Source of the DNA: Candidatus Aenigmatarchaeota archaeon
GTDB taxonomy: Archaea > Aenigmatarchaeota > Aenigmatarchaeia > CG10238-14
Direction: 5' to 3'
Length of the DNA: 64,000 nucleotides
Assembly: GCA_026414305.1 (NCBI GenBank)
Contig: JAOAJH010000005.1
Coordinates: forward strand, 1,612 to 65,611
The position numbers were made by a program, and so were the translations under genes. Positions 1 to 36,106 of the stretch are shown in pieces; the first letter of the stretch is position 1, and every line of letters starts with the position of its first letter. The notes under the pieces were generated by a model that ran no database searches, was not told the origin of the DNA, and worked only from the letters and a program-made list of their open reading frames with translations.

Positions 1-471
1 ATGAGAGCATTTTATTTGGCATTGACAGTTTTGTTCTTGAATGTTGTTTTTGCTGCAGACTTTGAATTGTGGGCTCAAAGAGGCGGCCTTTTTACAATAG
101 GTGAAAATCAAATAATCAAAGTTTATGTTCTAAACAAGGATTCAAGCCAAAGGGATTATACTATAACATATTCAAAATCAGCAACATACAATACAAATGA
201 TGTTTCGCATCTACTAATTGTCTCATTTCCTTCCAACAGAATTGATGATGTAAAACCAAGCGAAACAAAATCAACAGAGCTGACAGTTCTTATAGCAGCG
301 CCAATAAGCCAGGGTAGCATAACTTTCACAGGAACAGACGACACAGGAACTGTAAGACAGTACACCATCACAGACATAAGAGCAAGTTATCCCCAAAATC
401 TGCCAGAATTTCACATTATATTTCTTTTGCTGTTGTTTATCCTAGCAAGCTGGAAAATTTTAAAAATGTGA
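1..471 (+). CDS. Secreted protein with PEF-CTERM-like C-terminal sorting signal; may be N-terminally truncated by the window edge
   Basis: Hydrophobic N-terminal signal. The protein ends PEF(403-411)-HIIFLLLLFILASW-KILKM, i.e. a PEF tripeptide, a TM helix and a basic tail, as in PEF-CTERM archaeosortase substrates. Stop is TGA. Confidence 0.55.
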   Translation: MRAFYLALTVLFLNVVFAADFELWAQRGGLFTIGENQIIKVYVLNKDSSQRDYTITYSKSATYNTNDVSHLLIVSFPSNRIDDVKPSETKSTELTVLIAAPISQGSITFTGTDDTGTVRQYTITDIRASYPQNLPEFHIIFLLLLFILASWKILKM

Positions 472-487
472 CTTTACTATTTTAATC

Positions 488-1270
488 ATGAAATATTTTA
501 CATTGTTTATTTTTCTTCTCATACCTTCGGCAATGGCGGGTTATATATCAATTACAACATTTGTTGATGTTGATTTTGTAAGAGATAACAATGCTAGCAT
601 TAATGTTACAATAAAAAACTCTGGCACAGATGAAGCAAGAAATGTAAAAGTAAGTTTGATATCAGATCAATTTAAAATGAGCATCGAAGATATTGGAACA
701 ATATACCCAAATTCAGAAAAATCATTAAGATCAACCGTGTTTGTTGAAAACATTAAAAAAGGGTCTTACATAGCAGCTGTCAAAGTTGAATACAGCGACC
801 AATCAGGCAAAAAGTTTTCAGCGATTACCCCTGTAACTATAGTCTACAAGGAGCCTTCTCTAAGTAGAGTCATCATAGACATTGAAAAAATCAAAATAGA
901 AGAGCAATCTTCATCTTCAGCAAAGGTAAAAATAAAAAACAATGATTTTTATGAGAAAAACATAAACGTTAAAATTTTCCTTCCAATGGAATTTTCTGTT
1001 TATCCTTTGGAAATAAACGAAAATATCCAGCCAGGCAAAGAAACGACAAAAAAGTTTTTAATAAGAAACATGGAAGGAATTGATGGAAGCGAGTACGCTA
1101 TTTTTGCAGCGGTTAATTATGATGATGAAAACTATCATTATTCTCAATATAAAATCAGCACTTTGGAAGTTGTTTCCAAAAAAGCTATAAACTTGCCAAT
1201 TTTGATGGCCATATTCCTTTTATTATTAACTTTAACAATATCATATTTATCAAAAAAGAAAAAGAAATGA
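488..1270 (+). CDS. Secreted protein with two CARDB/DUF11-like beta-sandwich repeats and a C-terminal TM anchor plus poly-Lys tail
   Basis: Signal peptide MKYFTLFIFLLIPSAMA. Two CARDB-like repeats: NASINVTIKNSGTDEARNVKVSLIS and SSAKVKIKNNDFYEKNINVKIFL. C-terminus LPILMAIFLLLLTLTISYLSKKKKK. Confidence 0.5.
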   Translation: MKYFTLFIFLLIPSAMAGYISITTFVDVDFVRDNNASINVTIKNSGTDEARNVKVSLISDQFKMSIEDIGTIYPNSEKSLRSTVFVENIKKGSYIAAVKVEYSDQSGKKFSAITPVTIVYKEPSLSRVIIDIEKIKIEEQSSSSAKVKIKNNDFYEKNINVKIFLPMEFSVYPLEINENIQPGKETTKKFLIRNMEGIDGSEYAIFAAVNYDDENYHYSQYKISTLEVVSKKAINLPILMAIFLLLLTLTISYLSKKKKK

Positions 1271-5715: not shown

Positions 5716-7997
5716 CCTAAAAACTTGTATATTATTACCCCATTGTCATAAATTTTAACAAAATTATTTTTATCTAATTCAAACTTTTCTAACCCTTCGT
5801 ACAAGTAATTGTCCTTTTCCATTTTGCCTATATATATAAAATCAACATTATTTTCTTTTAATAAATAAATTGATTCATTTATGTCTGTTGTGTTGTATAT
5901 GAGATTAACCTTTTCGGCAATTTTATTGGCGTTTTTTAATGTGACTTGTTCCGCATGACATAACCATTCAACTAACGCACTTAAACCTGTAAAGGTAGAA
6001 GGTCTTGGATAAAATTCATAAGATATTCCAGGATATTCAAGTATTACATGTTTACCTTTGATGTTTTTATTTATCCATACTATTGCATTATATTCCTCAG
6101 GGTAATTTTGTTTTATAAATTCCATTGAATCAATAGTTAAATAATTCCTACCATAATTTGGTTTAAATAGTCCAGTTTCTGTTATTGAAGTCAAAACTAT
6201 ATACATTATTGATGAAGATAGAAAAATAAAAAATATCGATAGAAATATCATAAATTTAGTCTTTTTCATTCTATCTTTAAAGTAAAATAATATCAAAATT
6301 GTTGCAATATTCCAAAAAATCCATACGCTTTGATGCAATTTAAAGACAAAAACATATCTACCATATATATTAAACAATTCAAATATCCAAATCACAACCG
6401 TACCAAATAATATAGATATTATCAAAAATAACTCCTTATTATCTTCATAAATTTTAAAAATTATATAAAAAATACTCAAAATTGTAAAAGGTACTAAGAC
6501 TATTATAATTTGAAAGTCATAAACCACAGATTTTATACTTAACCAGTTAACATTTATTGGCATGTCAAATCTTTTTGGATCTTGAAAATAACTTAAAATA
6601 ACATTTAAGAACAATATAAAGTATGAAATCATTAAAATGATGAAAAACATTTTTAACTTTTTTGAAACTAAATTGTTAAAAATCTTGTATATAAAATAAG
6701 AATATATCATAAGCATCTGTAGCCCATAAAGAACAAAAAAATTAAATAAACTTGTCTTTAAATTTTCAAAAACCAATCCTGATCTGCTATGATTTAATTC
6801 CATCAAATTTTTTATGGGTTCAAAATAAATAACTAAACTAAGAAAAACTATAATTAAAAATGATATTATTAAATAAAATAAAAATTTTATGTTAATTTTA
6901 CCCTCATAATATATTGAAAATAGACATATACCTAAAAAAATAACATAAATTGGATAATTCCATATAAACTGTGGAAATAGATAACCCAATGATATTGATA
7001 TGATCAATATCTTAACTAATATTTCTTTTAAATTTGAACCAAAAACTCCAAATCCTGAAGAATTAGAATTTAAAATATCAAATATCAAATGGACAAAAAC
7101 AAAAATAAATGAATAAGAAACAAAATGTGCATGTAAATCACCCCATAACAAACTAAACCAGGGAAATTCAGTTATAGTCCACGGTATAACCCTTGTTGAC
7201 CACCAGAACAATTGTCCATCATACAAAAATCTTGAAAAAAAGTTTCCATGATTTGAAACTCTATGTTCTGTTATATTAAATTGAATTTCAGGGTTTATAG
7301 AACTTATTAAATGAAATATTGGTAATAGACTAGATCCAAATGTTATGAGAAACATACATAAAAAAGCTACTTTGTAATTTTTTGTTAAATTAAAACCTAT
7401 AGAAAACGATGAAATTCCTACTAATGCAAAGGCTGTTGCCAAAGATAGGATATAGCCTTTTGATGTTTCTATACCTGAAAGTTTTATTATAATCGCATAG
7501 GAAAAATGGCCAAAGTAATAATATACATTTTCTAGATTTATTCCTGACATCCATGGATATTCTGGAGGTAGTTTTTCTGATCTAATCATACTCTGAATAT
7601 ATGCAAAATCCATTGGACCTTCCCCATGATCCAAATCAGGTCTAAAAGATTTGAAAAATAAAGCTAAAAGAAACAAAGACAAGAATATAATTTCAGAAAT
7701 TATAATATGTTTTAAAAAGTCTTGTTTTTTTATTTCAACTTGATTGAATAAATTTTTTAAATTCAATATATACAAAAAAAGTAAAAAAAACAATGAAATT
7801 AAAATTGTATTTAAACTAAAATTTAAGCCTATTATCCTTGTCAAAAAATAAACAATAAAAGATGCTATCAAAAATGAAAAAGCTTTGTTAATTGAATATC
7901 CCCTATCATGCAAGTTTTTGAATACACCAAAGCATATAGGTAGAGTAACTAAATTAATTAATTGAAATATAAAATACCATAAAAATATTTCAAACAT
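5712..7997 (-). CDS. Chlor_Arch_YYY (DUF2298/TIGR03662-like) polytopic GT-C-like membrane protein
   Basis: 761 aa, highly hydrophobic. It carries YYYFGHF, the YYYxG signature of the family, and is paralogous to 10433-12496 (PPEYPWMSGINLENVYYYFGHF versus PPQDPWFSGHNINYYYFGHF). Confidence 0.6.
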   Translation of the reverse strand: MFEIFLWYFIFQLINLVTLPICFGVFKNLHDRGYSINKAFSFLIASFIVYFLTRIIGLNFSLNTILISLFFLLFLYILNLKNLFNQVEIKKQDFLKHIIISEIIFLSLFLLALFFKSFRPDLDHGEGPMDFAYIQSMIRSEKLPPEYPWMSGINLENVYYYFGHFSYAIIIKLSGIETSKGYILSLATAFALVGISSFSIGFNLTKNYKVAFLCMFLITFGSSLLPIFHLISSINPEIQFNITEHRVSNHGNFFSRFLYDGQLFWWSTRVIPWTITEFPWFSLLWGDLHAHFVSYSFIFVFVHLIFDILNSNSSGFGVFGSNLKEILVKILIISISLGYLFPQFIWNYPIYVIFLGICLFSIYYEGKINIKFLFYLIISFLIIVFLSLVIYFEPIKNLMELNHSRSGLVFENLKTSLFNFFVLYGLQMLMIYSYFIYKIFNNLVSKKLKMFFIILMISYFILFLNVILSYFQDPKRFDMPINVNWLSIKSVVYDFQIIIVLVPFTILSIFYIIFKIYEDNKELFLIISILFGTVVIWIFELFNIYGRYVFVFKLHQSVWIFWNIATILILFYFKDRMKKTKFMIFLSIFFIFLSSSIMYIVLTSITETGLFKPNYGRNYLTIDSMEFIKQNYPEEYNAIVWINKNIKGKHVILEYPGISYEFYPRPSTFTGLSALVEWLCHAEQVTLKNANKIAEKVNLIYNTTDINESIYLLKENNVDFIYIGKMEKDNYLYEGLEKFELDKNNFVKIYDNGVIIYKFLG

Positions 7998-8008
7998 TGA
8001 ATAAAAAT

Positions 8009-15092: not shown

Positions 15093-16238
15093 ATGGAAAT
15101 AGGCCTCATAGGAAAGCCTTCAAGCGGAAAAAGCAGCTTTTTCAAGGCTGCAACTGACAATGAAGTTGAAATAGACTCCAGACCATTCACAACAATAAAA
15201 CCAAACGTGGGGATTGCATATGTAACAGTGGATTGTGCTGAAAAAAAATTCGATGTAAAATGCAATCCAAGACATGGAAAGTGTATTAATGGAAAGAGAT
15301 ATATACCAGTCAAACTTTGGGACATTGCCGGAATTGTACCTGACGCGCACTTGGGAAAGGGCTTGGGTTTGAAATTTCTCGATGACATAAGACAAGCTGA
15401 TGTTTTAATCCATGTTGTTGATGTATCAGGAAAGACAGATCAAGAAGGCAATCCCACAAGCAGTCATGATCCATTGAAAGATGTGGAATTTGTGGAAAAT
15501 GAAATTGATGAGTGGTTTTTTGACATAATAAACAGAGGTATGGAAAAATACAAAACAAAGTTGAGAACTTCAAAAGTTGAGTTGAAAGATGTTTTATATG
15601 AGCAGCTTTCTGGCTTGAATGTTTCCAAACATGCTATTGAGGATGCAATTAGAATTGCCGGAACGGATAACATAAGAGTTTTTGCCAAAGAATTGAGAAA
15701 ATTATCAAAACCAATAATTGTTGCTGCAAACAAAATTGATGCCAATGGATCTGAGAAAAATTTTCATTCATTGGCTTCAAAATACAAAAATGTTGTTCCT
15801 GTTTCAAGTTTGGCCGAAATAATATTGCATAAATTAATCGGTGAAGGGAAGATTGAACTGGCAGAAGGGAAGATTGGCCTGAAAGGTGAATTGACAGAAA
15901 ATGAAAAAAATGCTGTCAAAATAATAGAAGATATAATATCAAAATATGGGTCTACAGGTGTTCAGGAATGTATAAACAAAGCCGTTTTTGAACTCTTGGG
16001 GTGCATAGTTGTCTATCCGGTTTCCGATATAAATAAGCTTTCAGACAGCAAAAATAATATCTTGCCAGACGCATTAATTATTAAAAAAGGCACGAAATTG
16101 AGGGAGTTTGCATATATGATACATACAGACATAGGTGACAAATTTATAGGTGGTATTGACGCAGTAAAAAAAATAAAGCTGTCTGCAGAATATGAATTAA
16201 AAAACAATGATGTTGTTGAAATACTTGTGAGAAGGTGA
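15093..16238 (+). CDS. Obg-family GTPase, YchF/DRG-like with C-terminal TGS domain
   Basis: G1 GLIGKPSSGKSSFFKA, PFTTIKPNVG, G4 NKID, and a C-terminal TGS-like segment ALIIKKGTKLREFAYMIHTDIGDKFIGG. Confidence 0.7.
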   Translation: MEIGLIGKPSSGKSSFFKAATDNEVEIDSRPFTTIKPNVGIAYVTVDCAEKKFDVKCNPRHGKCINGKRYIPVKLWDIAGIVPDAHLGKGLGLKFLDDIRQADVLIHVVDVSGKTDQEGNPTSSHDPLKDVEFVENEIDEWFFDIINRGMEKYKTKLRTSKVELKDVLYEQLSGLNVSKHAIEDAIRIAGTDNIRVFAKELRKLSKPIIVAANKIDANGSEKNFHSLASKYKNVVPVSSLAEIILHKLIGEGKIELAEGKIGLKGELTENEKNAVKIIEDIISKYGSTGVQECINKAVFELLGCIVVYPVSDINKLSDSKNNILPDALIIKKGTKLREFAYMIHTDIGDKFIGGIDAVKKIKLSAEYELKNNDVVEILVRR

Positions 16239-16242
16239 TTTT

Positions 16243-17361
16243 TTGAGAATAGCGCTTGTTAGTTCAAATTCATTTCATTCTTACGGTGGTATACAAAATC
16301 ATGTGTTGGGTCTTTACAATTATCTTAAAAGCAAAGGTCATTATGTTAAAATAATATCTCCTAAATTCAAAAATGAAAGGCCTGTAAATCATGATCACAT
16401 ATTTGTGGGGCAATCGACTAAAATCAGCATGAATGGTGGCTTGACAGACTTTACAATCCTGACAAAAAAGGATAATTTAAAGCAGCTTTTTGAAAACGAA
16501 AAGTTTGACATAATTCATATACACAACCCCAATCTTATGATATCATTGCAAATTTTGGCAAATTCAAATTCTAAAAATATAATCACCTTTCATGTTTTAC
16601 CTGATCAAAGCTCTTTGTACGGCATTTTTAAGCGTGTGATAAAAGGTCTCAAAAAAATAAAAATTTACAAAAAAATAAACGGTGTAATATATGTTTCAAA
16701 GCCAGTAAAAAAATATTTTGCTAGATACTTTAGATTCAAAAGCCAGATTATACCAAACGGGATTGAAATTGAAAGGTTCAATTCAAATGAAAAAATTGAA
16801 AAGTTCAATGATGGCAAAATAAACCTTCTTTTTTTGAGCAGGATTGAAAAGAGAAAAGGATTGATATATCTTATAAAAGCCTTTGAGATTTTAAGGAAAA
16901 AAAATGATAAAATAAGGCTAATTGTAGCTGGTACAGGCAATCTTGAAAAAGCGTGCAAAAAATATGTTCAAAAAAGAAAAATTCCTGATGTGGAATTTGT
17001 TGGAAGCATAAGCGATGAGGACAAGATAAAGTATTATAACACATGTGACATATTTTGTGCGCCTTCTATATTTGGAGAAAGTTTTGGCATAGTTTTAATT
17101 GAAGCCATGGCAAGTGGAAAGCCCATAGTTGGTTTTGCAAACAAAGGATACAAAACATTGCTTTCTGGTAAAGCAGGAAAGTTTTTGGCAAAACCAAAAA
17201 ATCACAACAGCCTGGCAAGAAAAATAAACATTCTTTTGAAAAACAAAGAATTAAGAGAAGAGATTGGCAAATGGGGAAAAGAGGAAGTGAAAAACTATTC
17301 TTGGAATGTTGTTGGTGAAAAAATAGAAAATTTCTACAGGAGTGTTTTAAATGAAAAATAG
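16243..17361 (+). CDS. GT4 (GT-B fold) glycosyltransferase
   Basis: FGESFGIVLIEAMASGKPIV matches the E-x7-E motif region. Confidence 0.7.
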   Translation: MRIALVSSNSFHSYGGIQNHVLGLYNYLKSKGHYVKIISPKFKNERPVNHDHIFVGQSTKISMNGGLTDFTILTKKDNLKQLFENEKFDIIHIHNPNLMISLQILANSNSKNIITFHVLPDQSSLYGIFKRVIKGLKKIKIYKKINGVIYVSKPVKKYFARYFRFKSQIIPNGIEIERFNSNEKIEKFNDGKINLLFLSRIEKRKGLIYLIKAFEILRKKNDKIRLIVAGTGNLEKACKKYVQKRKIPDVEFVGSISDEDKIKYYNTCDIFCAPSIFGESFGIVLIEAMASGKPIVGFANKGYKTLLSGKAGKFLAKPKNHNSLARKINILLKNKELREEIGKWGKEEVKNYSWNVVGEKIENFYRSVLNEK

Positions 17362-18005: not shown

Positions 18006-19508
18006 ATGAAAAATCTGTCATATGTTAATTATGAAAAATTCAAGCCAAGGATTTATCAAGAACTTATAGCAAACACAGCAATAAAGAAAAACACGCTTTG
18101 CATACTTCCTACAGGTCTTGGAAAAACATATGTAGCAATTCTGGTAGCTTCTTGGATTCTTGAAAATACAAGAGGCAAGGTTTTGATGATAGCGCCAACA
18201 AGGCCATTGGTGAATCAGCACATGAAAACTTTTTCATCATCTATGAATATTGACAAAAAACTTCTTGTAGCTCTTACAGGCAAAATAAGGCAGGATGACA
18301 GGAAAGAATTGTACAAGATTGGGAAAATATTTTTTGCCACTCCACAAATAATAAAGAATGATGTTGATAGTGGCTTGCTTGACTTGTCTGAATTCAGCTT
18401 ACTTGTGGTTGACGAATGCCATAGATCTGTAAAAAAATATGCTTACACAGAAGTTGCTGAAAGATATTTCAACCAATCATATCACCCTCTTGTTTTGGGA
18501 TTGACAGCATCGCCAGGTGGTATGCAAGATAAGATTGACGAAGTAAAAAAGAAGTTGAGAATAGATGCGATTGAGGTCAGAACAGAAAAGGATGTTGATG
18601 TGCAGCCATATGTCAAGCAGACAAAAATTGAGCAGATTTACGTTGAACTACCTGAAGATTTCATATGGATAAAAAATCTGCTTGAAGATTATTATAGACA
18701 AAGGCTTAACGAGCTTCTAAGAGCTGGCTTGATATTTTCCATGAGAACAAGCAAAAAAGAGCTATTGGATTTGCAAAAAAGAATCGGTAAATTGTATGAT
18801 GAAACAAAAGATAAAAACGCAGCAAGGTTTCTTGTTATATGCTCTCAAGCAATAAAAATCGAACATGCATTATCTTTGATTGAGACACAAGGGATATATT
18901 CTTTGCATAGGTATTTTCTTGAAATGAAAAAAAATGGGACATCTTCTTCAAAATCCATAATAAATGACAAAAGAATCTCAGAGGCATTGAAAAGGATAAA
19001 TGAGCTTTATGTTAAAGGTGTTGAGCATCCAAAAATGCTAAAGCTTGTTGAAATAATAAAAAATGAAGTTGAAATGAAAAAAAACGTGAAAATAATTGTT
19101 TTTGCGAACTTCAGAGACACTGTTAGCCAAATAAGATCATATCTTTCTAAAAGTGGCATAGAGTCAAGAGAATTTATAGGTCAGGCTAAAAAAGGTGGTA
19201 AAGGTTTGTCACAAAAAGAGCAGATACAAATGATAAATGAGTTTGAATACGAAATGTTCAATGTTCTTATTGCAACAAGCATAGGCGAAGAAGGCTTGTC
19301 TATACCCGCTGTTGACATAGTCATATTTTACGAGCCTGTACCCAGCGAGATAAGAACAATACAAAGAAGGGGAAGGACTGGAAGGACAGAATCCGGAAGA
19401 GTCATATTTTTAATAACAAAAAACACAAGGGATGAATGGTATTATTGGAGTGCTTTTAACAAAGAAAAAAGAATGAAAAACATTATAAATGAATTAAAGA
19501 CAAAATGA
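18006..19508 (+). CDS. hef: Hef/FANCM-type SF2 DEAH helicase; helicase part of a split Hef
   Basis: Motif I ILPTGLGKT, motif II LLVVDECH, motif III TASPG and motif VI QRRGRTGR. About 500 aa, the size of the Hef helicase region. Confidence 0.8.
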   Translation: MKNLSYVNYEKFKPRIYQELIANTAIKKNTLCILPTGLGKTYVAILVASWILENTRGKVLMIAPTRPLVNQHMKTFSSSMNIDKKLLVALTGKIRQDDRKELYKIGKIFFATPQIIKNDVDSGLLDLSEFSLLVVDECHRSVKKYAYTEVAERYFNQSYHPLVLGLTASPGGMQDKIDEVKKKLRIDAIEVRTEKDVDVQPYVKQTKIEQIYVELPEDFIWIKNLLEDYYRQRLNELLRAGLIFSMRTSKKELLDLQKRIGKLYDETKDKNAARFLVICSQAIKIEHALSLIETQGIYSLHRYFLEMKKNGTSSSKSIINDKRISEALKRINELYVKGVEHPKMLKLVEIIKNEVEMKKNVKIIVFANFRDTVSQIRSYLSKSGIESREFIGQAKKGGKGLSQKEQIQMINEFEYEMFNVLIATSIGEEGLSIPAVDIVIFYEPVPSEIRTIQRRGRTGRTESGRVIFLITKNTRDEWYYWSAFNKEKRMKNIINELKTK

Positions 19509-19512
19509 TTTT

Positions 19513-20169
19513 ATGCAGTCAACACTTAAAACCAACAATGTTTTTATCCTTGCTGATGACAGGGAAAGCAAAAGTAACGTGTGCTTTTATCTCAAAGAAT
19601 TTGGCGCAAATGTCAGCTTCAAAAGGCTTGAAGTAGGTGATTTTCTTGTTTCTGACAGCATATGCATTGAAAGAAAGTCATCTAATGATTTCATAAATTC
19701 AATAATTGACGGCAGGCTGTTTGAGCAGGCAGAAAACATAAAAAACAATTTCAAGAAAGGAATAATTATGATAGAAGGAAACAATGCTGACGGCAGAATA
19801 ACTGAAAACGCGCTCAAAGCCAGCATAGCAACTGTCATAGTCAATTATGATGTAGATGTTTTAAGAACTGAAAACGAAAAGGAAACGGCCAGAATGATTT
19901 ATTACATAGCCAAAAAAGAACAGGAGCAAGGAAAGTCTGTTGTTATCAAAGGCAAGAGAAAAGGCAAGCAAATAGATGAGCTTCAATTACAGCTTTTGTG
20001 CTCTCTGCCTGGAATTTCAAACGGCCTTTCCAAAAAAATAACTGAAAAGTTTTCAAATATAAAAGAATTTGTAAATGCTGACCAAGACGAAATAAGAAAG
20101 ATAAAAGGTCTTGGCAAGACAAATGCAAAAAAAATATATGAAATATTCAATCAAGAGTGGAAAAAATGA
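19513..20169 (+). CDS. hef: ERCC4/XPF-type nuclease with C-terminal (HhH)2; nuclease part of Hef, encoded as a separate ORF
   Basis: GDFLVSDSICIERKSSNDFINSIIDGRLFEQ (the ERK nuclease motif), plus C-terminal LPGISNGLSKKI...IKGLGKTNAKKIYE helix-hairpin-helix pair. It starts 5 nt after the helicase stop, in a different frame. Confidence 0.75.
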   Translation: MQSTLKTNNVFILADDRESKSNVCFYLKEFGANVSFKRLEVGDFLVSDSICIERKSSNDFINSIIDGRLFEQAENIKNNFKKGIIMIEGNNADGRITENALKASIATVIVNYDVDVLRTENEKETARMIYYIAKKEQEQGKSVVIKGKRKGKQIDELQLQLLCSLPGISNGLSKKITEKFSNIKEFVNADQDEIRKIKGLGKTNAKKIYEIFNQEWKK

Positions 20170-21230
20170 AAGTAGTGATTGTCGGGTTTGATCCTGGAAC
20201 CAGGGCTGGCATTGCAATTTTGGATACATTTGGAAGGGTGATTTTTCTTTCCAGCAAAACAAACGCAGGCATTGCAACATTTTCCAAAATAATAACAAGC
20301 CACGGCAAACCTTTGATTGTTGCTACAGACAGAAAACCTGTTCCAAAAGGCGTTGAAAAGCTTGCAAAATCAGTTGGTGCAAAATTGTTTGTTCCCGAAG
20401 ACTCTATGAGTGTCAAAGAAAAGGAAGAGCTGGTAAGAAGATTTAACATAAAAATAAAAAACGATCATGAAAGAGATGCTCTTGCCGCTGTCGTCAAGGC
20501 ATACAAAAACTATGCAAACCTTCTCAGAAAGATATACATTTCCACTAGCAGCTTGGGTTTGAATGAAAAATACAATGAAATAGTTGAAAACATAATATTT
20601 GGAAGGGCTGACAACATTGATGAGGCAATAAACCTTGCTTTGTCTCCAAAAATTGCCGAGAAAAAAATTGAAAAGCCTACCGAAAAGCCTGTTGCTGCTA
20701 AAAAAGATACATCAAGATTGGAAAAGGATATTGAAATTCTCAAAAGATTCAACCAAAACTTGCTTAAAGAGAATGCACAACTGGTTGAAATGTTAAACAA
20801 GAACAGAGTCAGCAGCAATGACGGTTTGAAAAAGCAAATTGATGAATTGAGAAGATATTTGGATCTTGCTAAAAATTATAGGAGAATGGAGATTGAAAAG
20901 AAAATCCCTTTAATAGAAATTGAAAAAATTGACATAAACCTTTTGGGCAAGCTTGATGAATACATTGATCTTGCTGATAGAGTTGTTTTTGTCAAAAGAC
21001 CTGCTAATTTGCAGGAGCTAAATGAATACAAGATTGGAGCAGCAGTTGTGACTCAAGACGTTGAAAGATCAAAGCTTGATTTCCCAGTTATAATGATAAA
21101 AGAAAGGGACATAAAAGACTCGGGTGGAATAAAATACATTGAAAAGGAATTTTTTGACCAAACAATAAAGGATGCTCGAAAAGAGGGCTTGAAAGAATGG
21201 GTAAAAGAATACAGAAAAAGAAGGATTTGA
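20157..21230 (+). CDS. DUF460-like archaeal protein, predicted RNase H-like/RuvC-like fold
   Basis: N-terminus MKVVIVGFDPGTRAGIAILD resembles the DUF460 N-terminal motif (recollection). It overlaps the hef nuclease ORF by 13 nt. Confidence 0.4.
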   Translation: MEKMKVVIVGFDPGTRAGIAILDTFGRVIFLSSKTNAGIATFSKIITSHGKPLIVATDRKPVPKGVEKLAKSVGAKLFVPEDSMSVKEKEELVRRFNIKIKNDHERDALAAVVKAYKNYANLLRKIYISTSSLGLNEKYNEIVENIIFGRADNIDEAINLALSPKIAEKKIEKPTEKPVAAKKDTSRLEKDIEILKRFNQNLLKENAQLVEMLNKNRVSSNDGLKKQIDELRRYLDLAKNYRRMEIEKKIPLIEIEKIDINLLGKLDEYIDLADRVVFVKRPANLQELNEYKIGAAVVTQDVERSKLDFPVIMIKERDIKDSGGIKYIEKEFFDQTIKDARKEGLKEWVKEYRKRRI

Positions 21231-21730
21231 AATCTGCCTTTTTGTTTTTGTTAAAGCTAAATTTGTTTTTGCTGCCGTTTTACGCTATAATTTATTTTGA
21301 TGTCACATATTATCCTCTTCAGATAGCATTTTCATGGGTTGTACTATTTTTAACCAATCTTATGGGTTTTAATGTAAAAATGGACGGTGCAATGCTCTAC
21401 ATAGGGGAAAGTAATTATCCTGTATACATTTCATTTGATTGCATAGGATGGAAATCTAGCTATTCTTTGATTGCACTTGTTTTGGCCTCTCCGGGTCTTG
21501 TTAGAAAAAAGGCTGCTTTTATTGCAAAATGGGTCCCTGTGATCATAGCAATAAACATAGCAAGAGTTGTCATCGCAATTGGTTCTGGTGTTTTGATAAA
21601 TTTTGAATTCATGAAAGCGCTTCATGATTACATACTGCAGCCTGTAATGATATTAATTGTATTCCTTGTGTGGTCTGGGTATATCAAAAGTCTAAGCAAG
21701 GAGGACAAAATTTATAGTATCAGAAAATAA
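21197..21730 (+). CDS. Short exosortase/archaeosortase-family protein
   Basis: 177 aa, about 5 TM. Candidate catalytic Cys in DCIGWKSS, Arg in LVRKK, and NIARV matching the conserved NxxRV motif of exosortases. His in ALHDY. Confidence 0.5.
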   Translation: MGKRIQKKKDLKSAFLFLLKLNLFLLPFYAIIYFDVTYYPLQIAFSWVVLFLTNLMGFNVKMDGAMLYIGESNYPVYISFDCIGWKSSYSLIALVLASPGLVRKKAAFIAKWVPVIIAINIARVVIAIGSGVLINFEFMKALHDYILQPVMILIVFLVWSGYIKSLSKEDKIYSIRK

Positions 21731-22966: not shown

Positions 22967-25009
22967 ATGCTTATGAAAGATCAGATTGTGCTATTGGCAG
23001 AAAAGCCGCAGGCTGCTATGAAAATATCGCTTGCTCTTTCTGAAGGAAATGTAAAAAGAAAATACAACAACAACACATATTGGTTTGAGTTTGAAAGAAA
23101 CGGGTTAAAGCACATATGCGTTCCTGCTGTGGGCCATCTTTTTGTTCTAGACACGCCGTCAAAAAAATGGGATTATCCTATTTTTGAGATGAAATGGATA
23201 CCTGCGTTCAAGAAAAAGCACGCAAAATTCACAGAAAGCTATTATAAAAACATTGAATTGTTCAAAGAATGCCCAAATGTAATAGTATGCTGCGACTATG
23301 ACACAGAAGGCGAGGTTATTGGTTACAACATAGTCAGGTTCATTTTTGGATTGAATAATGCTAAAAGGATGAAATTTTCCACTCTCACAAAGCAAGACAT
23401 AATAGAATCTTATGAAAATGTCATGAAAGAAATTGATTTTGGCCAAGCAAATGCAGGATTAGCAAGACATTATCTTGACTTCATGTGGGGCATAAATACA
23501 ACCAGGGCTCTTAGCATGTCAATGAAAAAAGTCAGCAAAGGCTTCAAAGTAATTTCAACTGGAAGAGTCCAAGGTCCTATGCTAGCGATATTGGTTAGAA
23601 GGGAAAAGGAGATAGCATCATTCAAACCAGAGCCGTATTGGGAAATAAAGCTCACTGCACTGAAAAATAAAAATGAAATAAACGCAGAGTATGAAAAGAC
23701 AATATGGAATGGAAATGATGCAAGAGAAATTTATGAAAAGTGCAAAGGTAAAGAAGCTATAGTTGCTGACGTAAAGAAAAAAGTGCAAAAAATACTGCCA
23801 CCTGTACCATTTGACACTACAACGTTACAGACAGAAAGCTACAGATTTTTGGGAATGTCTCCCATGCAAACATTAAGCGTTGCAGAATCTCTTTACACAC
23901 AAGGATACATATCATATCCAAGAACAAGCAGCCAGAAATTACCTGAAAAGATAGGATACAAGCAGATAATAAATGCAATTTCAAAAATTCCCAAATTCAA
24001 AAACGCATTATCGCTTTTACAAACGCCTCTAAAACCTAGAGAAGGTGAAAAAACAGATCCATCTCATCCTGCAATATATCCTACAGCGCAAATTCCTGAC
24101 TTGGGAAAATTAAGCGTACAAGAAAAAAGGCTTTATGAGCTCATCGTCAGCAGATTCCTCGCTGTTTTTGGCGAATCAGCAGAAAGGCAAGTTGTCAAAG
24201 TTGATTTTGATGTTAATGGATACAAATTCATTGCTAACGGCTATAAAACAATGAAACTTGGCTGGATTATATTCTATCCATACTCTCAACTAAAAGAAAT
24301 TGAAATGCCTGAATTGATTATAGGTGAAAAATTAAAGGTGAAAAAGCTTTCATTGGTTGAAAAGCAAACAAAACCTCCTGACAGATATACCCAAGCATCC
24401 ATATTAAAGGAAGCTGAAAAACACAATTTAGGAACAAAGGCTACAAGGGCCCAAATATTACACACGCTTTATGAGAGAGGTTATATTGTCGGCAGCAGTA
24501 TCAAAGTCACAGAATTGGGAATGGCTGTTGTTGATGCTTTGGAAAAGTATTGCCCAGAAATAATTGACGTAAATCTTACTGCAAAATTCGAGCAGGAAAT
24601 GGAATCTATAAGGGAAGGTGGAAAAAGTGTTGATGAAGTTGTTGATGAAGCAAAAGAATATTTGGATAAAATCTTTGACGAATTCAAAAAAAATGAGGAA
24701 AGCATTGGAAAAGTGCTTTTAGATGCAAACAAAAATTTTGAGGAAGAAAAAAGGACTGTTGGTGAATGCCCTCTGTGCAAAAACAAGCTGAAAATAATAT
24801 TTTCAAGAAAAACAGGCAAAAGGTTCATAGGTTGCTCTAATTACAGCAAAGGTTGCACTTTTTCAGCACCATTGCCTCAAAAAGGCGATGTTTATGTTAG
24901 CGATAAGACATGCAAGGAATGCTCATATCCAATGGTAGTGCTGAAATTCAAAGGCAGAAAGCCTGTATATTCTTGCATAAACATGCAGTGCAAAACAAAA
25001 TCAACATGA
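22967..25009 (+). CDS. topA: Type IA DNA topoisomerase (TopA / topo III-like) with C-terminal zinc ribbons
   Basis: Toprim LLAEKP. Active-site Tyr region GYISYPRTSS, compare E. coli GYITYMRTDS. C-terminal Cys clusters CPLCKNKL...C..C and CKECSYP...CINMQC. Confidence 0.8.
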   Translation: MLMKDQIVLLAEKPQAAMKISLALSEGNVKRKYNNNTYWFEFERNGLKHICVPAVGHLFVLDTPSKKWDYPIFEMKWIPAFKKKHAKFTESYYKNIELFKECPNVIVCCDYDTEGEVIGYNIVRFIFGLNNAKRMKFSTLTKQDIIESYENVMKEIDFGQANAGLARHYLDFMWGINTTRALSMSMKKVSKGFKVISTGRVQGPMLAILVRREKEIASFKPEPYWEIKLTALKNKNEINAEYEKTIWNGNDAREIYEKCKGKEAIVADVKKKVQKILPPVPFDTTTLQTESYRFLGMSPMQTLSVAESLYTQGYISYPRTSSQKLPEKIGYKQIINAISKIPKFKNALSLLQTPLKPREGEKTDPSHPAIYPTAQIPDLGKLSVQEKRLYELIVSRFLAVFGESAERQVVKVDFDVNGYKFIANGYKTMKLGWIIFYPYSQLKEIEMPELIIGEKLKVKKLSLVEKQTKPPDRYTQASILKEAEKHNLGTKATRAQILHTLYERGYIVGSSIKVTELGMAVVDALEKYCPEIIDVNLTAKFEQEMESIREGGKSVDEVVDEAKEYLDKIFDEFKKNEESIGKVLLDANKNFEEEKRTVGECPLCKNKLKIIFSRKTGKRFIGCSNYSKGCTFSAPLPQKGDVYVSDKTCKECSYPMVVLKFKGRKPVYSCINMQCKTKST

Positions 25010-25621
25010 AAATTCTGATGCGCCTGAAACTGTGTTGTTAAAGCATGTGACTATGTTGTTTGAAAATGTGTAGTATGTCTTTGATGATGTTGTGTTTCTA
25101 AATCTCAAGCAGCAATAGTCTCTTACATAGTTTGTTATGTAATTTGTCTTCAACTGATCAAAGTTTGACTGAATGTTGTTTCTGTCGTTTGTTGTCCTGC
25201 TTAGATCATCCTTGCATTTGTCATACTTGTCTGACATGCTTGAGTATTTTGATTCCAAATCGCTGTATTGATCCTCACATTTTGACAGATCCCTAGAGCA
25301 TATTGTCAATCTGCTATCTAAAGCAGTTTTATCGCTTTGGCATGTGTTTAAACTTGAAACTTTGTTTTGCAAATTCAAGTTGCACGTTTCAAGATCAGAA
25401 TTGAATTGCTGTCTGTCATTTATACAGTTTTGAAGGTTTGTTGACAAAGCAGTAACATTGTTTTCAAGAACTTTGGCATAATTGCCTGTTTTCACTGAAA
25501 CGCCGACTAGGCCTATTATTAGAATTATCAAAGCTGTAACAAGAACCCACACATTCATAAACCTTGAAATAGGATTATCGCTGCTATACATGCCCCAGTA
25601 ATTTTTCCATTGTCTCAGCAT
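25001..25621 (-). CDS. Hypothetical membrane-anchored coiled-coil, Cys-containing protein
   Basis: N-terminal TM VWVLVTALIILIIGLVGV, then a coiled coil with spaced Cys residues. Confidence 0.35.
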   Translation of the reverse strand: MLRQWKNYWGMYSSDNPISRFMNVWVLVTALIILIIGLVGVSVKTGNYAKVLENNVTALSTNLQNCINDRQQFNSDLETCNLNLQNKVSSLNTCQSDKTALDSRLTICSRDLSKCEDQYSDLESKYSSMSDKYDKCKDDLSRTTNDRNNIQSNFDQLKTNYITNYVRDYCCLRFRNTTSSKTYYTFSNNIVTCFNNTVSGASEFSC

Positions 25622-26044: not shown

Positions 26045-26782
26045 TTATTGAACCGGTAAGCACCGGTTATCATACCAATAGCAATATCCTACTACACCAT
26101 TACATGTAAATCTATCAGTAAATGAACTACATCTAATACAACAACAATCCTGAAATATGCTACATTGGGTTTGGGAATAACCCAAACTACAACCGCCTTG
26201 ATCAGTACACATACCAAAATCATAATTTATAGATTTACAATATGAATCACATTCCGAATCTAATATTGTGGTTGGAGTTACAATTGTTGTTCTTGTCGCG
26301 GTTCGAGTGGTTGTAGGGCCAGTTGGTGTTGATGTTGTTAATGATGGTGTTGATGTTGTGGTTCTTGTTGTTGTTGGAGTTCGAGTGGTTGTTGTTGTGG
26401 TTATAGTATAGTCAGGATAATGATAAAAAACAATAGATGTTGATGTTCCTTTGCCAATGACAGTCATTCTATAATCTCCTTCTGGTAAGCTTGTCAAATC
26501 AATATTTATCACACCTGATTTAAACGGCTCTATTTGTCCACCCTCAACTGTAGCAGGATACTGTTGCCCATTAACCAAAACTTTTAGATCTTGGCTTGAA
26601 AGCGGCTTGTCACCATTATTTGAAACGATTATCTTGTTAGGCAAAACATCATGAATCTCAATATTTCCAGAAGTTTTTACATCAACAACATTCCTAAAAA
26701 AATTATATCCAACTGCTGCCAAGCTTATTGTTATTGTAACAAGAAGCAAGCTTGCTATTACAGTAGAAATGCCTTTCATCAA
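26045..26782 (-). CDS. Secreted protein with a beta domain, poly-Thr linker and Cys-rich C-terminal domain; possible class III (type IV pilin-like) signal peptide
   Basis: N-terminus MMKGISTVIASLLLVTITISLAAV resembles KG|(S/A/I) prepilin-type signals. Thr-rich stretch TTTTTRTPTTTRTTTSTPS, and the C-terminus carries 14 Cys. Confidence 0.5.
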   Translation of the reverse strand: MMKGISTVIASLLLVTITISLAAVGYNFFRNVVDVKTSGNIEIHDVLPNKIIVSNNGDKPLSSQDLKVLVNGQQYPATVEGGQIEPFKSGVINIDLTSLPEGDYRMTVIGKGTSTSIVFYHYPDYTITTTTTTRTPTTTRTTTSTPSLTTSTPTGPTTTRTATRTTIVTPTTILDSECDSYCKSINYDFGMCTDQGGCSLGYSQTQCSIFQDCCCIRCSSFTDRFTCNGVVGYCYWYDNRCLPVQ

Positions 26783-28047: not shown

Positions 28048-29919
28048 TCAGCTCTTTCTCTTTTTGCTACCTTTCCACCCTTTGCCAGGAATCCAACCAG
28101 TCTTTTTCAACTTTGGATAATAAAACCAAAGTGCTATTGCTATCATAACAGCTGCTATTGCAACAGCAACCCATTTAAGCATAGGAAGCAGGCTCAACCC
28201 CGTCATTGGTTGCTTTTGCGGTAGCGTAGTCGTTGTCACAGTAGGTTCTATTGGTTGTTTTTCTTTTTCCTTTATTTGCAGATACATTGTTCTGCTATAA
28301 GTTCTTGTTCCAAAGTCAGAACTTGATGCAAATTTTAAGACAACCCTGTATGTGTATATGTTCGCATTTTCAGGTATTGTAAAGTGCAAACGGAAGTTTT
28401 TAGTCTGGTTTGATTCTAGCAATGATATTTCTTTTGGCTCTATTCTATACCAGTTAACATTCAAGCCGTCTGCCTCTATTATTGGTGTGATCGAATATAT
28501 TGGATAATTCAAAGGATTGTAAAGGCTTATGTCAACAGAAACGCTTTCCCCCTGCAAAAGCTCTATCTTTTCAGCAACAGTTATGTTAATGTCGCCTTGC
28601 TGCCTGACTATATGCTCTAATGTTGTTGACGTAGAGCTACCTGACCCTGTGTTTTGAGATGGTAATGATTGGTAAGATAAAACATATGTTTTTGTCAACT
28701 GATTATTGGTTTCATCCCTTTCAAACACAACGTCATTTGAATCTGCAAATACTTTTATTTCATGTTGACCTTTTAGTATGTTGATTATTTTTATATCAAA
28801 AGAGTATTCTTGATTCTGATCAAGCGATTGAACTGTCCTTTCGCTCAACAAAACTGAATCAAAGTATGTAGATATTTTGAAATTTCTAGCAACAAAATTG
28901 CCTGCATTTTGCACTGTTATTTTCACATCAAGATCTTTTCCCTCTTCCAAATCATTCAGAAATCTTATTTCCTTGACAACTAAATCTGGCATTCCTCTTA
29001 GCATACCATTGTCATAAATATAATCATATTTGCCATCAGCATCAACATCAATTGCATAAACATTGCCGCCAAGGTTTCTAAGATTTGTAATTATTCCTCG
29101 CGATGTGTCCCAGAATTTTTCATAGATGCCGTCTCTGCCTAAATCTACTAGAAACTGCCTTGTGCCGTCGCCATATATGCTTATTTCAAGCAAGCTGTAA
29201 TCCCCTGTGAATGTCTGGCTAGGCGCATCTATCAAGCTATTGTACAAAACCCAATTAACAGCATTCTTGAATGCCAACTCAGCTTCATCTGTCCAGTAAA
29301 GCGGCTCTGTTATTCCGAAAAAGACGATTCTTGATGATGTAACTTGATTGTTAAGCAATACAGTTCCTGGCTCTGCCGTTGCTATAACAGCATATGTAGG
29401 CGAACTCACAGATGCTGTTGCGTTTAGCACAGATCTTGTCATTTCAACATTCAGCACAGGCTTGCCTTCAATGATGTGCGTTCTCACTCTGCTGTTTATG
29501 TCATATTTGTAAAATACATTTTGGTTGTCTAAAACCTGCACATACAAGGGTCTGCTTGAAAATACAGTGCCAATTGCGCCTGGCTGAATCCAACCAAAAT
29601 CATCTGGATAAGCAGAATCAATTACGACCGATGGCTTGTTATTTACAGGCAAGCTTGCAACAAAGCTGTCCAAGTGTTGATAGCTATAAACATTTGATGG
29701 CCTTCCTGCTATGACAATTGCGTCAAACGAATTCATGTTGTAGTTTTGATAATTGCTTCCGTCAATCAAAACAACATTATGTCCCATTGAAAGTAGGACA
29801 CGATTGACTCTGTGCTCATGAACATAATCAACATCAGCCGCATTTTTCACTATCAATGCTATGTTTGCCGCGCTTGACATTGGTATTAGCATTAACAGCA
29901 ATAAAACATACCATCTCAT
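28048..29919 (-). CDS. Large secreted beta-rich protein with CARDB-like segment and C-terminal TM anchor plus basic tail
   Basis: Signal peptide. DLDVKITVQNAGNFVARNFKI CARDB-like segment. C-terminus LSLLPMLKWVAVAIAAVMIAIALWFYYPKLKK. Confidence 0.55.
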   Translation of the reverse strand: MRWYVLLLLMLIPMSSAANIALIVKNAADVDYVHEHRVNRVLLSMGHNVVLIDGSNYQNYNMNSFDAIVIAGRPSNVYSYQHLDSFVASLPVNNKPSVVIDSAYPDDFGWIQPGAIGTVFSSRPLYVQVLDNQNVFYKYDINSRVRTHIIEGKPVLNVEMTRSVLNATASVSSPTYAVIATAEPGTVLLNNQVTSSRIVFFGITEPLYWTDEAELAFKNAVNWVLYNSLIDAPSQTFTGDYSLLEISIYGDGTRQFLVDLGRDGIYEKFWDTSRGIITNLRNLGGNVYAIDVDADGKYDYIYDNGMLRGMPDLVVKEIRFLNDLEEGKDLDVKITVQNAGNFVARNFKISTYFDSVLLSERTVQSLDQNQEYSFDIKIINILKGQHEIKVFADSNDVVFERDETNNQLTKTYVLSYQSLPSQNTGSGSSTSTTLEHIVRQQGDINITVAEKIELLQGESVSVDISLYNPLNYPIYSITPIIEADGLNVNWYRIEPKEISLLESNQTKNFRLHFTIPENANIYTYRVVLKFASSSDFGTRTYSRTMYLQIKEKEKQPIEPTVTTTTLPQKQPMTGLSLLPMLKWVAVAIAAVMIAIALWFYYPKLKKTGWIPGKGWKGSKKRKS

Positions 29920-30398
29920 TTTCTATACCTCTTTATTAGCAATGCTATTAAAGCAAGCAAAGCAAAAACAATTGGAATTGCATAAATATAATTTGTTTGC
30001 TTTTTCTCTGTGCCTGAAACTATCATTGTTATCTCAGACTGCAAAGCTATTGGAACTGTGCCTTCGGCTTGATAAGCTGCGATTATTGCTCCATTGTATA
30101 CACCCGGTTTGTTTGTAGTGAGAGTGAAATTAACCTGCTCTGTCTGGTTTGGCTCAAGTTGAATCCTGTTAATTATATTTATTTTGTCAGTGATGTTTCC
30201 TGTTGTTGTGAATGTTACATTTACAGTAAAATTGTTTGTGTTCCTTACCTCAACAAATCCGTTCCATACGCTTGTCTCTGTTAAGTTGATTCTTGCTATC
30301 ATCCTTGGTGGTCTTATGTAAACGTCAAAAGCATAAACAGCAGTAATTGTAAGCAGCAAAAATGCAAGCAAAAATATCTTTGTTTTCATACACTTCAC
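29916..30398 (-). CDS. Small secreted protein with C-terminal TM plus basic tail (sorting-signal-like)
   Basis: Signal peptide. Ends AIPIVFALLALIALLIKRYRK. Coupled to the upstream gene by a 4-nt overlap. Confidence 0.5.
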   Translation of the reverse strand: MKCMKTKIFLLAFLLLTITAVYAFDVYIRPPRMIARINLTETSVWNGFVEVRNTNNFTVNVTFTTTGNITDKINIINRIQLEPNQTEQVNFTLTTNKPGVYNGAIIAAYQAEGTVPIALQSEITMIVSGTEKKQTNYIYAIPIVFALLALIALLIKRYRK

Positions 30399-33872: not shown

Positions 33873-34520
33873 TTAACTGCATCTACCAGCATAAGCATTG
33901 AACAAGCAGATGCCAAAAACAGAGCTTATGCATCTTCTCTCGCAAAAGCCGCTGCAGCAATCTTGATTGGCTTGGCATGCATCGCCTCTTGTTTTGCATT
34001 GCTGTGAAAATATTGTTGTTGTGGCTGTCTGCGTTGTTTGCAATGTTGTTGTCAAAGTTGTTTGCATGTTATCGCTGCAATATCCTGACAATGGGTTGCC
34101 TATCCAAAAACAGTTTGGCAACGAAGTGCATGTCATAAAAGGTCTGTTTCTGCAGCTGATCAAAGTCGTCGTAGTTTCTGAAGCGGTCGTCGCGGTTGTT
34201 GTTGTAGTGGTCGTCGTTTCGCCTTGAATTATTTTAAAGCCTTTAAACAAACCGGCGCCTAAAGAAACATCGCCTGGTAAAAATCTAAAGCCAAATGATG
34301 CGTTTACATGATTTTCATATCTGCATATGCCTGGCGAGCATTCTTTGATAAACTTTGGTGGATCTATTTCTCTGTTCATTGAATCTACGTATTGATACAA
34401 CTCACATTTTATAGCATCATTAGGGCATACAAAAGTCGGTGTTGTTGTGTAAGCAGAATACATTTCAACTTGCAAAGCCATTACTGCTGGAAATATAAAC
34501 AAAAGCAATATCCATCTCAT
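33873..34520 (-). CDS. Secreted protein with poly-Thr linker, one CxWIG four-Cys module and a knottin-like Cys-rich C-terminus
   Basis: CRNRPFMTCTSLPNCFWIGNPLSGYC. Two Thr stretches (TTTTTTTATTASETTTT). C-terminus CKTRGDACQANQDCCSGFCERRC. Confidence 0.5.
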   Translation of the reverse strand: MRWILLLFIFPAVMALQVEMYSAYTTTPTFVCPNDAIKCELYQYVDSMNREIDPPKFIKECSPGICRYENHVNASFGFRFLPGDVSLGAGLFKGFKIIQGETTTTTTTTATTASETTTTLISCRNRPFMTCTSLPNCFWIGNPLSGYCSDNMQTTLTTTLQTTQTATTTIFSQQCKTRGDACQANQDCCSGFCERRCISSVFGICLFNAYAGRCS

Positions 34521-35729: not shown

Positions 35730-36106
35730 AATTCAAAATTAAAATTAAACTATTTAAACAGAGATAATGTTACTTGAAGGTAGATTTGATTTTTTCTATT
35801 TCAATAAACATTAATTATCATTTGATATAAGATTAAAATGGCTTAAAATTTTTTATTTCAAAAAAAACAGAAATCTAAATCAATCTTTCAATTTCAATGC
35901 ATTAACTAGAATCTCTATATCAATCTTTTTCTGGCAGTGAGGGCATGTCAAATCCCAAAACACATCAAGCTGTTTTTGCATTTATATTACCTTTTTAATA
36001 ATTGGAATTATTCTTGGCTTAAAGATTAATGGAATTTTAATAGAAAAAAATTTAATGTTTTAATTATTTGATAAAATTTAAAAAAATTATTAAAGTAAGA
36101 TAAATC

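Follow-up and report, generated by a model that had tools for sequence, protein, structure and literature searches.

Within a 64,000-nucleotide stretch of a Candidatus Aenigmatarchaeota archaeon genome (contig JAOAJH010000005.1, hereafter the window) we describe two genes that may together constitute a system for anchoring proteins at the cell surface. The first, at 21197-21730, encodes a polytopic protein that we assign from its sequence to the exosortase/archaeosortase family. The second, the open reading frame (ORF) at 1-471, encodes a secreted protein whose C-terminus carries a Leu-Pro-Glu-Phe (LPEF) motif, a transmembrane (TM) helix and a short basic end. DPANN archaea depend on contact between their cell surface and their hosts. 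To our knowledge, archaeosortases have been characterised experimentally only in haloarchaea, and we know of little about how the surface proteins of DPANN archaea are anchored. A full-text search of the literature returned no paper treating archaeosortases in Aenigmarchaeota, the two terms co-occurring only as passing mentions in a general S-layer review, and no mention of 'pacearchaeosortase', the name of one of the curated subfamilies considered below.

The 177-residue product of the gene at 21197-21730 scores above the cut-off of both family-level profile hidden Markov models (HMMs), reaching 35.5 bits against NCBIfam TIGR04178 (exosortase/archaeosortase family level, cut-off 23) and 42.2 bits against Pfam PF09721 (Exosortase_EpsH, cut-off 25.7). 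The family membership proposed in a preliminary description of this DNA is thus borne out by the HMM check suggested there. Searching 5.8 billion proteins yielded 34 homologues of 120-196 residues (33 of them 155-196 residues long, the remaining one a partial match of 120) with E values from 3.6e-99 to 3.9e-21; all 34 match PF09721, and TIGR04178 is matched by 33 of 33, with a best E of 7e-16. Wherever a homologue has an organism name, that name is Aenigmarchaeota or Aenigmatarchaeota, and several already bear the NCBI label 'archaeosortase/exosortase family protein'. When one genome per GTDB species was searched with tblastn, down to 27 % identity, 18 loci were found: 11 in Aenigmatarchaeota/Aenigmarchaeota, 6 in genomes named 'uncultured archaeon' and 1 in Micrarchaeota. 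Judged from the sequences recovered, the clade is, as far as sampled, restricted to the Aenigmarchaeota, which are DPANN archaea. A chance ORF or a decayed pseudogene, which the overlap with the neighbouring gene and the lack of any subfamily score above cut-off might have suggested, is ruled out for all practical purposes by the 34 homologues, the conserved start and catalytic residues and the confidently predicted fold.

Within the family, the window sortase reaches the cut-off of none of the curated subfamilies (ArtA-F, XrtA-Z, pacearchaeosortase and heimdallarchaeosortase). It scores 43.1 bits against XrtX (NF046081, cut-off 170), 37 against XrtH (TIGR04177, cut-off 86), 24 against ArtB (TIGR04144, cut-off 150), 21 against pacearchaeosortase (NF033505, cut-off 80) and 18 against ArtD (TIGR04175, cut-off 125). 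The subfamily models likewise gave no strong match among the 33 homologues, with a best E of only 1e-13. Because the scores fall far below each subfamily cut-off, in all 33 homologues as well as in the window protein, we treat these proteins as a separate clade without a curated model, placed by its scores outside every curated subfamily. The preliminary description had put the protein at about 60 % of normal archaeosortase length. This holds against ArtA-type enzymes only; the curated short-form models span 150-168 positions (ArtB 156, ArtD 150, XrtH 158, XrtX and XrtY 168, pacearchaeosortase 167), so a length of 177 residues is normal rather than odd.

The predicted catalytic residues are all in place. 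The exosortase/archaeosortase family has an inferred catalytic triad of Cys, Arg and His (Haft, bioRxiv 10.1101/2023.06.07.544157), and in the window sortase the corresponding residues, already picked out in the preliminary description together with the NIARV motif, occur as C82 in the context SFDCIGWKS, N120-IARV-124 and H143 in KALHDYI (codons in Table 1). In an alignment of 33 sequences sharing 40-92 % identity with the window protein, C82, N120, R123 and H143 are invariant, as are G84, W85, K86, S87, Q42 and W159. An AlphaFold2 (AF2) model with a pLDDT of 86.6 consists of five long helices and a beta-hairpin loop ahead of the Cys. Neither Foldseek against the PDB nor a profile search matched this model to a solved structure; no member of the family is solved.

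The distribution of Lys and Arg gives an indication of how the enzyme sits in the membrane. Across the family these residues average 4.9 per sequence at the N-terminus, 3.2 in the loop after the Cys helix and 5.3 at the C-terminus. Acidic loops precede both the Cys helix and the His helix. The counts put these three basic regions (N-terminus, C-D loop and C-terminus) on the inside of the cell. Following the positive-inside rule, this distribution suggests for helices C to E that C82, R123 and H143 share one face of the membrane, probably the outer one; the count is at odds with the first two helices.

The protein encoded at 1-471 ends in YPQNLPEF-HIIFLLLLFILASW-KILKM. Its AF2 model (pLDDT 91.2) shows a signal helix at residues 2-11, a beta-sandwich at 21-123 whose only PDB matches are generic immunoglobulin-like (Ig-like) folds, and a TM helix spanning 135-155; by eye, the signal-peptide site reads VFA/AD. 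Since the helix begins at P135, the motif abuts it with no spacer, an arrangement known from signals that are cleaved by sortases lying deep in the membrane (Haft, bioRxiv 10.1101/2023.06.07.544157). The PEF-TM-KILKM tail noted in the preliminary description is real and is kept in relatives. Four close orthologues read YPQ[NS]L[PS]EF, with PEF retained in three and both E and F in all four. When 1.84 billion representative proteins were searched with a profile of the close orthologues, 70 relatives came up, of which 49 had E values below 1e-10. The shared domain, hereafter the ORF1 domain, is about 135 residues long and occurs either alone, in proteins of 150-175 residues, or as the last domain of proteins of up to 1235 residues. 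Stand-alone members have hydrophobic N-termini with A-x-A-like sites, as judged by eye.

Conservation in this family centres on the motif itself. The pattern L[PSDQN][ED][FLN], mostly as LPEF, lies 19-36 residues from the C-terminus in approximately 58 of the 67 relatives that were fetched, and is followed by a hydrophobic stretch and often by a final SY-x-SHFR. Among 64 relatives aligned locally, 97 % have L134, 80 % P135, 98 % E136 and 95 % F137, E136 being the top-conserved column of the whole family; the near-invariance of L134, E136 and F137 is seen again in a separate alignment of 30 stand-alone members. Given this conservation, we regard the PEF tail as a sorting-signal-like element that ORF 1-471 and its relatives have kept.

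Table 1. Positions in the window of the sortase gene, its predicted active-site codons, the LPEF gene and their immediate partners
Feature	Positions	Strand	Basis or detail
Secreted 156-residue protein with signal peptide, Ig-like beta-sandwich and LPEF-TM-KILKM end; probable substrate	1..471	+	AF2 model; 70 relatives
PEF-CTERM-like tail	400..468	+	LPEF 400-411; hydrophobic helix 412-453; KILKM 454-468
CARDB-domain surface protein, 260 residues, adjoining the LPEF gene; apparently plain TM anchor	488..1270	+	PF07705, 33 bits
DUF460 gene, RNase H-like, 357 residues; conserved upstream operon partner	20157..21230	+	PF04312, 119 bits
Out-of-frame 34-nucleotide overlap of DUF460 end and sortase start	21197..21230	+	Conserved across loci
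Putative short-form archaeosortase gene, 177 residues, ATG start	21197..21730	+	TIGR04178 and PF09721 above cut-off; 34 homologues; AF2 model
Cys82 codon, predicted catalytic nucleophile, motif DCIGWKS	21440..21442	+	Invariant in 33/33
N120-I-A-R123-V codons, conserved Asn and predicted catalytic Arg	21554..21568	+	N120 and R123 invariant
His143 codon, predicted third catalytic residue	21623..21625	+	Invariant

The tail was scored against Haft's eight attributes of sorting signals. It lies near the C-terminus, has at least three near-invariant signature residues and includes a TM helix, and its carriers have signal peptides. Two to five basic residues are expected at the very end (attribute 5); the LPEF tails end in KILKM, SHFR, KKFRNI or KRTIV, usually with 1-3 Lys or Arg, and several, such as SYTFHLS, have none. 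Of several carriers per genome (attribute 2), two per locus are present at L028, L030 and L031 and one in the 64 kb of the window. Carriers that share the signal alone (attribute 7) are not seen: a beta-sandwich of about 110 residues precedes the tail in all of them, and in approximately 500 kb of loci no other protein bears an LPEF tail. In their N-terminal parts, the larger carriers show no relationship to one another.

Curated signal models do not recognise the tail. The preliminary description had called it PEF-CTERM architecture, and the check that it proposed came out negative, with neither the PEF-CTERM nor the PGF-CTERM HMM matching ORF 1-471; for PEF-CTERM (TIGR03024, cut-off 23 bits) this extends to E values up to 10. 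Among ten ORF1 relatives only P0099 gave a TIGR03024 match, sub-threshold at 15.2 bits against 23, and HMMER filters may hide weak matches. Eight surface proteins of the window likewise returned no match to PEF-CTERM, PGF-CTERM or other curated signal models.

In two relatives, P0041 (416 residues) and P0043 (418 residues), a single ORF fuses an ORF1-type LPEF protein to a CARDB protein of the type encoded at 488-1270. The window counterparts of the two halves are separate genes, 1-471 and 488-1270, lying 16 nucleotides apart. In the fusions the signal is internal and reads SLFEF or TLSEF, followed by a helix and then KRPK or RSK. With the signal in mid-protein, these natural fusions would make a convenient cleavage reporter.

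Sortase and LPEF genes occur together in several cases. In the window a single syntenic block holds both, at a distance of 21 kb. On contig SRR24425660_1617, from a second lineage and with a sortase of 47 % identity, a pair of adjacent LPEF genes is found approximately 15 kb upstream of the sortase, and the two stretches have in common the order LPEF, EamA, glycosylation genes, GT4, DUF2784, thioredoxin-like (Trx), Hef, ERCC4, DUF460, sortase. GCA_038999715.1 and GCA_018920365.1 each contain a sortase and an LPEF gene on separate contigs. Sortase and LPEF thus co-occur in all four genomes or contigs that could be checked, all from related lineages, and twice they share a gene block. At three loci from other lineages (L030, L031 and L033) a sortase was looked for up to 10 kb from the LPEF genes and not found. 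A 175-residue neighbour at L030 shares 50 % identity with the corresponding protein of the Aenigmarchaeota locus L026, which suggests that LPEF loci of the L030, L031 and L033 type also come from Aenigmarchaeota.

That neighbour is one of two adjacent cytoplasmic proteins of about 170 residues that flank LPEF genes in distant lineages (L026 8920-9979; L030 4746-5779, reverse strand; L031 18676-19254). They carry an N-terminal ...DC..P......Y.GPNP and have no Pfam match, the L030 and L026 copies being those that are 50 % identical. A large Cys-rich secreted protein, a thioredoxin-like protein and a TM-tailed protein of about 147 residues join the pair in a conserved surface-structure gene cluster.

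The preliminary description had also counted the C-termini of ORFs 488-1270, 29916-30398 and 28048-29919 (the latter two on the reverse strand) as part of an anchoring system. Each does finish with a hydrophobic helix and, after it, basic residues; as sorting signals they fall away for want of a conserved motif. Approximately 20 tails from the window and about 25 loci that combine a signal peptide, a C-terminal TM helix and a basic end show no common motif besides LPEF. In the 160-residue protein of 29916-30398 the residues ahead of the helix vary freely among orthologues. Taken from their sequences, these three tails look like ordinary membrane anchors rather than sorting signals. We also considered an 'NLP' signature common to ORF 1-471 (NLPEF) and ORF 488-1270 (NLPIL) and rejected it, as P0040, a 50 %-identical orthologue of the latter, has FDS (FDSII) at this position.

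We favour, with moderate confidence, the reading that the gene at 21197-21730 encodes a working short-form archaeosortase that recognises LPEF and cuts away the C-terminal helix, so that the Ig-like stalk stays attached to lipid. The enzyme would be a core-only, polytopic protein of the membrane that acts as a cysteine endopeptidase, or possibly as a transpeptidase, and Cys82, Arg123 and His143 are its predicted active site. Its likeliest substrates would be secreted proteins that end in the Ig-like 'pre-PEF' domain and a tripartite tail, made up of L-P-E-F at the membrane edge, a helix of about 18 hydrophobic residues and a short terminus that is polar or basic; in the window, the example would be ORF 1-471. 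Cleavage would fall on or close to LPEF, at the outer boundary of the membrane. The C-terminal helix would be removed, and the stalk, with anything fused to it, would be left on a membrane lipid in the manner of ArtA and PGF-CTERM. The sequences themselves show the family membership, the conserved catalytic residues and tail, and the co-occurrence of the two genes; the action of this enzyme on this tail is inferred. Of the archaeosortase-type anchoring system put forward in the preliminary description, the family enzyme and the tail of ORF 1-471 stand, whereas the other three tails, the curated signal models and AglB do not contribute.

Several observations weigh against this reading. The sortase gene sits in a DNA-repair operon, away from its presumed substrates, and a simple five-TM model is at odds with how its first two helices appear to be oriented. 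The basic cluster of the LPEF tails (KILKM, SHFR) is weak, and the curated PEF-CTERM model fails to recognise them. Because every carrier shares the adjacent beta-sandwich, LPEF does not appear as a portable signal. The four co-occurrences fall within one sub-lineage and are weak evidence for a link between sortase and LPEF, and the LPEF genes at L030, L031 and L033, in other lineages, have no sortase in their vicinity. Nor is the sortase closest to ArtC, the known PEF-CTERM enzyme.

Some of these points would also fit with a genuine and active archaeosortase for which the LPEF proteins are not substrates, its targets lying elsewhere or bearing another signal, while the LPEF-TM tail serves as a permanent anchor peculiar to its family or is handled by another enzyme. 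The confinement of the tail to one domain family in the sampled loci leaves room for its conservation to reflect the structure or oligomerisation of the module, and the LPEF loci that lie apart from a sortase, the failure of the curated model and the distance from ArtC all speak in the same direction. We nevertheless judge this alternative rather unlikely: L, E and F are near-invariant precisely at the membrane boundary, a hallmark of sortase signals, the signal-peptide, TM and basic tails of the window and loci offer no other recurrent motif that the enzyme might use, and sortase and LPEF are found together in every case that could be checked.

The position of the sortase gene in its operon is unusual and highly conserved. 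The preliminary description had the gene overlapping the end of a DUF460 gene in a hef operon, which is confirmed: the overlap is exactly 34 nucleotides at 19 of 21 distinct loci and 31 nucleotides at one more. L029 has the same 34-nucleotide overlap, and at L025 a gap separates the two genes. DUF460 is syntenic with the sortase at all loci except L024, where it is missing upstream. DUF460 proteins are an archaea-only member of the RNase H-like superfamily, in a Holliday-junction-resolvase-like group (PMC3985635). The wider order is Hef helicase, ERCC4 nuclease, DUF460, sortase, a coiled-coil protein (at most loci) and a type IA topoisomerase, and from Hef to topoisomerase it is kept from 60 % down to about 36 % sortase identity; in the sub-lineage of the window FtsZ is located near the block. 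Since both overlap and gene order are conserved, the embedded position of the sortase is a fixed feature of the clade.

On a conservative reading, the overlap amounts to translational coupling in a compact genome. A bolder proposal is that it causes the sortase to be made in a fixed ratio with a chromosome-processing module, and so could couple envelope anchoring physically or temporally to chromosome resolution and cell division; we regard this as highly improbable. Related to it is the possibility that the role of the sortase is tied to the operon, the protein acting as a membrane partner or tether for the DUF460 protein, the coiled-coil protein and the topoisomerase, and perhaps linking chromosome resolution or cell division to the envelope. 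The depth to which overlap and block are conserved across the clade, the nearby FtsZ and the link between H. volcanii ArtA and midcell growth made in PMC7157517 lend it some plausibility. The invariance of the full Cys/Arg/His set, however, argues for a working protease, and the DUF460 protein has no signal peptide, TM helix or sorting-type tail. Gene order in compact DPANN genomes may moreover reflect shared transcription only, and the arrangement is broken at L024 and L025. We therefore consider a purely operon-bound role improbable, and retain the reading of a sortase that acts on LPEF proteins.

Two details of the repair genes themselves were also observed. In the window (18006-20169) Hef is split into a helicase gene of 500 residues and an ERCC4 nuclease gene of 218 residues, and the split is found at all related loci. 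At L019 (6564-8876) the ERCC4 nuclease gene matches as two pieces, residues 1-56 and 56-216, with approximately 1.6 kb between them, which suggests an inserted element or an intein.

According to the preliminary description the sortase sits with glycosylation genes, as ArtA sits with AglB-type genes. The window does contain two DUF2298 genes, GT2, PMT_2, a carbamoyltransferase, GT4 genes and Polysacc_synt flippases, and the order of PEF gene, glycosylation block and sortase is repeated on SRR24425660_1617. The sortase itself, on the other hand, belongs to the block formed by Hef, ERCC4, DUF460 and topoisomerase, and no AglB/STT3 was found among 35 window proteins scanned against Pfam (34 of them ORFs of at least 110 residues, large membrane proteins included). 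The GT4, DUF2784 and thioredoxin-like genes immediately upstream of the sortase block are kept only in closer relatives.

Beside the LPEF and CARDB genes, at 1664-3778 on the forward strand, lies a gene for a 704-residue polytopic membrane protein that has no Pfam match even at E up to 10 and has a 700-residue counterpart at L026; it could be an unrecognised GT-C-type glycosyltransferase. The window also contains AT-rich islands at 50001-54000 (GC content 0.20-0.23), 6001-8000 (0.23) and 36001-38000 (0.27), against a background of approximately 0.33-0.37. The 50-54 kb island holds GT4 glycosyltransferases and unannotated membrane proteins and adjoins Polysacc_synt flippases, and that at 6-8 kb holds one of the two DUF2298 genes. 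These islands may be exchanged glycan-synthesis cassettes.

Several secreted proteins end not in a TM helix but in a Cys-rich C-terminal module, in some cases preceded by a Thr-rich linker, as in ...TTTTVCSNICKRWLRLVCLDWETVCVL. In the window these are 25001-25621, 26045-26782, 33873-34520 and 34818-35729 on the reverse strand and 59668-60939 on the forward strand; at other loci they are L026 6892-8685 (reverse strand), L030 24-2480 and L031 2935-5760. The large L026 and L030 proteins have a Cys-rich C-terminal region in common, at 32 % identity. The module may be a second, disulfide-based means of attachment. At L005, two secreted proteins (15953-16897 and 19620-20369, both on the reverse strand) have G-Y-W-W directly ahead of a C-terminal helix and basic tail; with two copies, the likeness may be due to chance or paralogy.

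The analysis yields a sortase clade specific to the Aenigmarchaeota for which there is no curated model, and, as a candidate signal, LPEF-CTERM, borne by an Ig-like stalk domain that is also the terminal module of large multidomain surface proteins. Two new HMMs, one for each, could improve the annotation of Aenigmarchaeota, in which the sortase is now labelled generically and its putative substrates are called 'hypothetical'.

Among known enzymes, the window sortase compares most directly with the short forms XrtX, XrtH, ArtB, ArtD and pacearchaeosortase. Like them it is a core-only protein, theirs being 150-170 residues long, with the same layout of Cys, Arg and His, and it aligns end to end with XrtH (positions 10-157 of 158) and ArtB (positions 7-152 of 156). 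It differs in that it and all 33 homologues score far below the cut-offs of these subfamilies.

With ArtA and its PGF-CTERM substrates the system has in common the TIGR04178 family and the build of the substrate, in which a motif abuts a TM helix that is followed by a basic end. Experiments on H. volcanii ArtA have shown Cys173, Arg214 and Arg253 to be critical (PMC9263693), and the spacing from Cys to Arg is 41 residues in both enzymes (C82-R123 here, Cys173-Arg214 there). An H. volcanii ArtA substrate with a non-C-terminal signal also resembles the mid-protein signal of P0041 and P0043. ArtA differs in being about 300 residues long, with extra N-terminal helices, in the signal, which is PGF and not LPEF, and in the third critical residue, Arg253 where the window sortase has His143. 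The ArtA model matches just 21 of the 33 homologues, at E of 1e-6 or weaker. Cleavage and lipid attachment have been shown for ArtA; for the window sortase we infer them.

PEF-CTERM is recognised by ArtC, as stated in PMC5244752, and the ArtC (TIGR03762)/PEF-CTERM (TIGR03024) pair is similar to the present one in having Pro-Glu-Phe right before a C-terminal TM helix. The window sortase is not an ArtC, the ArtC model matching 16 of the 33 homologues with a best E of 1.3e-6; a PEF-like signal appears here in the company of a non-ArtC sortase. The LPEF tail is further set apart from PEF-CTERM by an extra conserved Leu, by an end that is often SY-x-SHFR and not an Arg cluster, and by its constant occurrence on one Ig-like domain. 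In this last respect, going by the family name only, PGF-pre-PGF presumably offers a parallel, as a dedicated domain ahead of a sortase signal. PGF-pre-PGF (IPR026453) is listed with PGF-CTERM in Table 2 of PMC5244752. A lineage-specific sortase clade and a variant PEF signal on a dedicated domain are thus an extension of a known anchoring mechanism and not a new mechanism.

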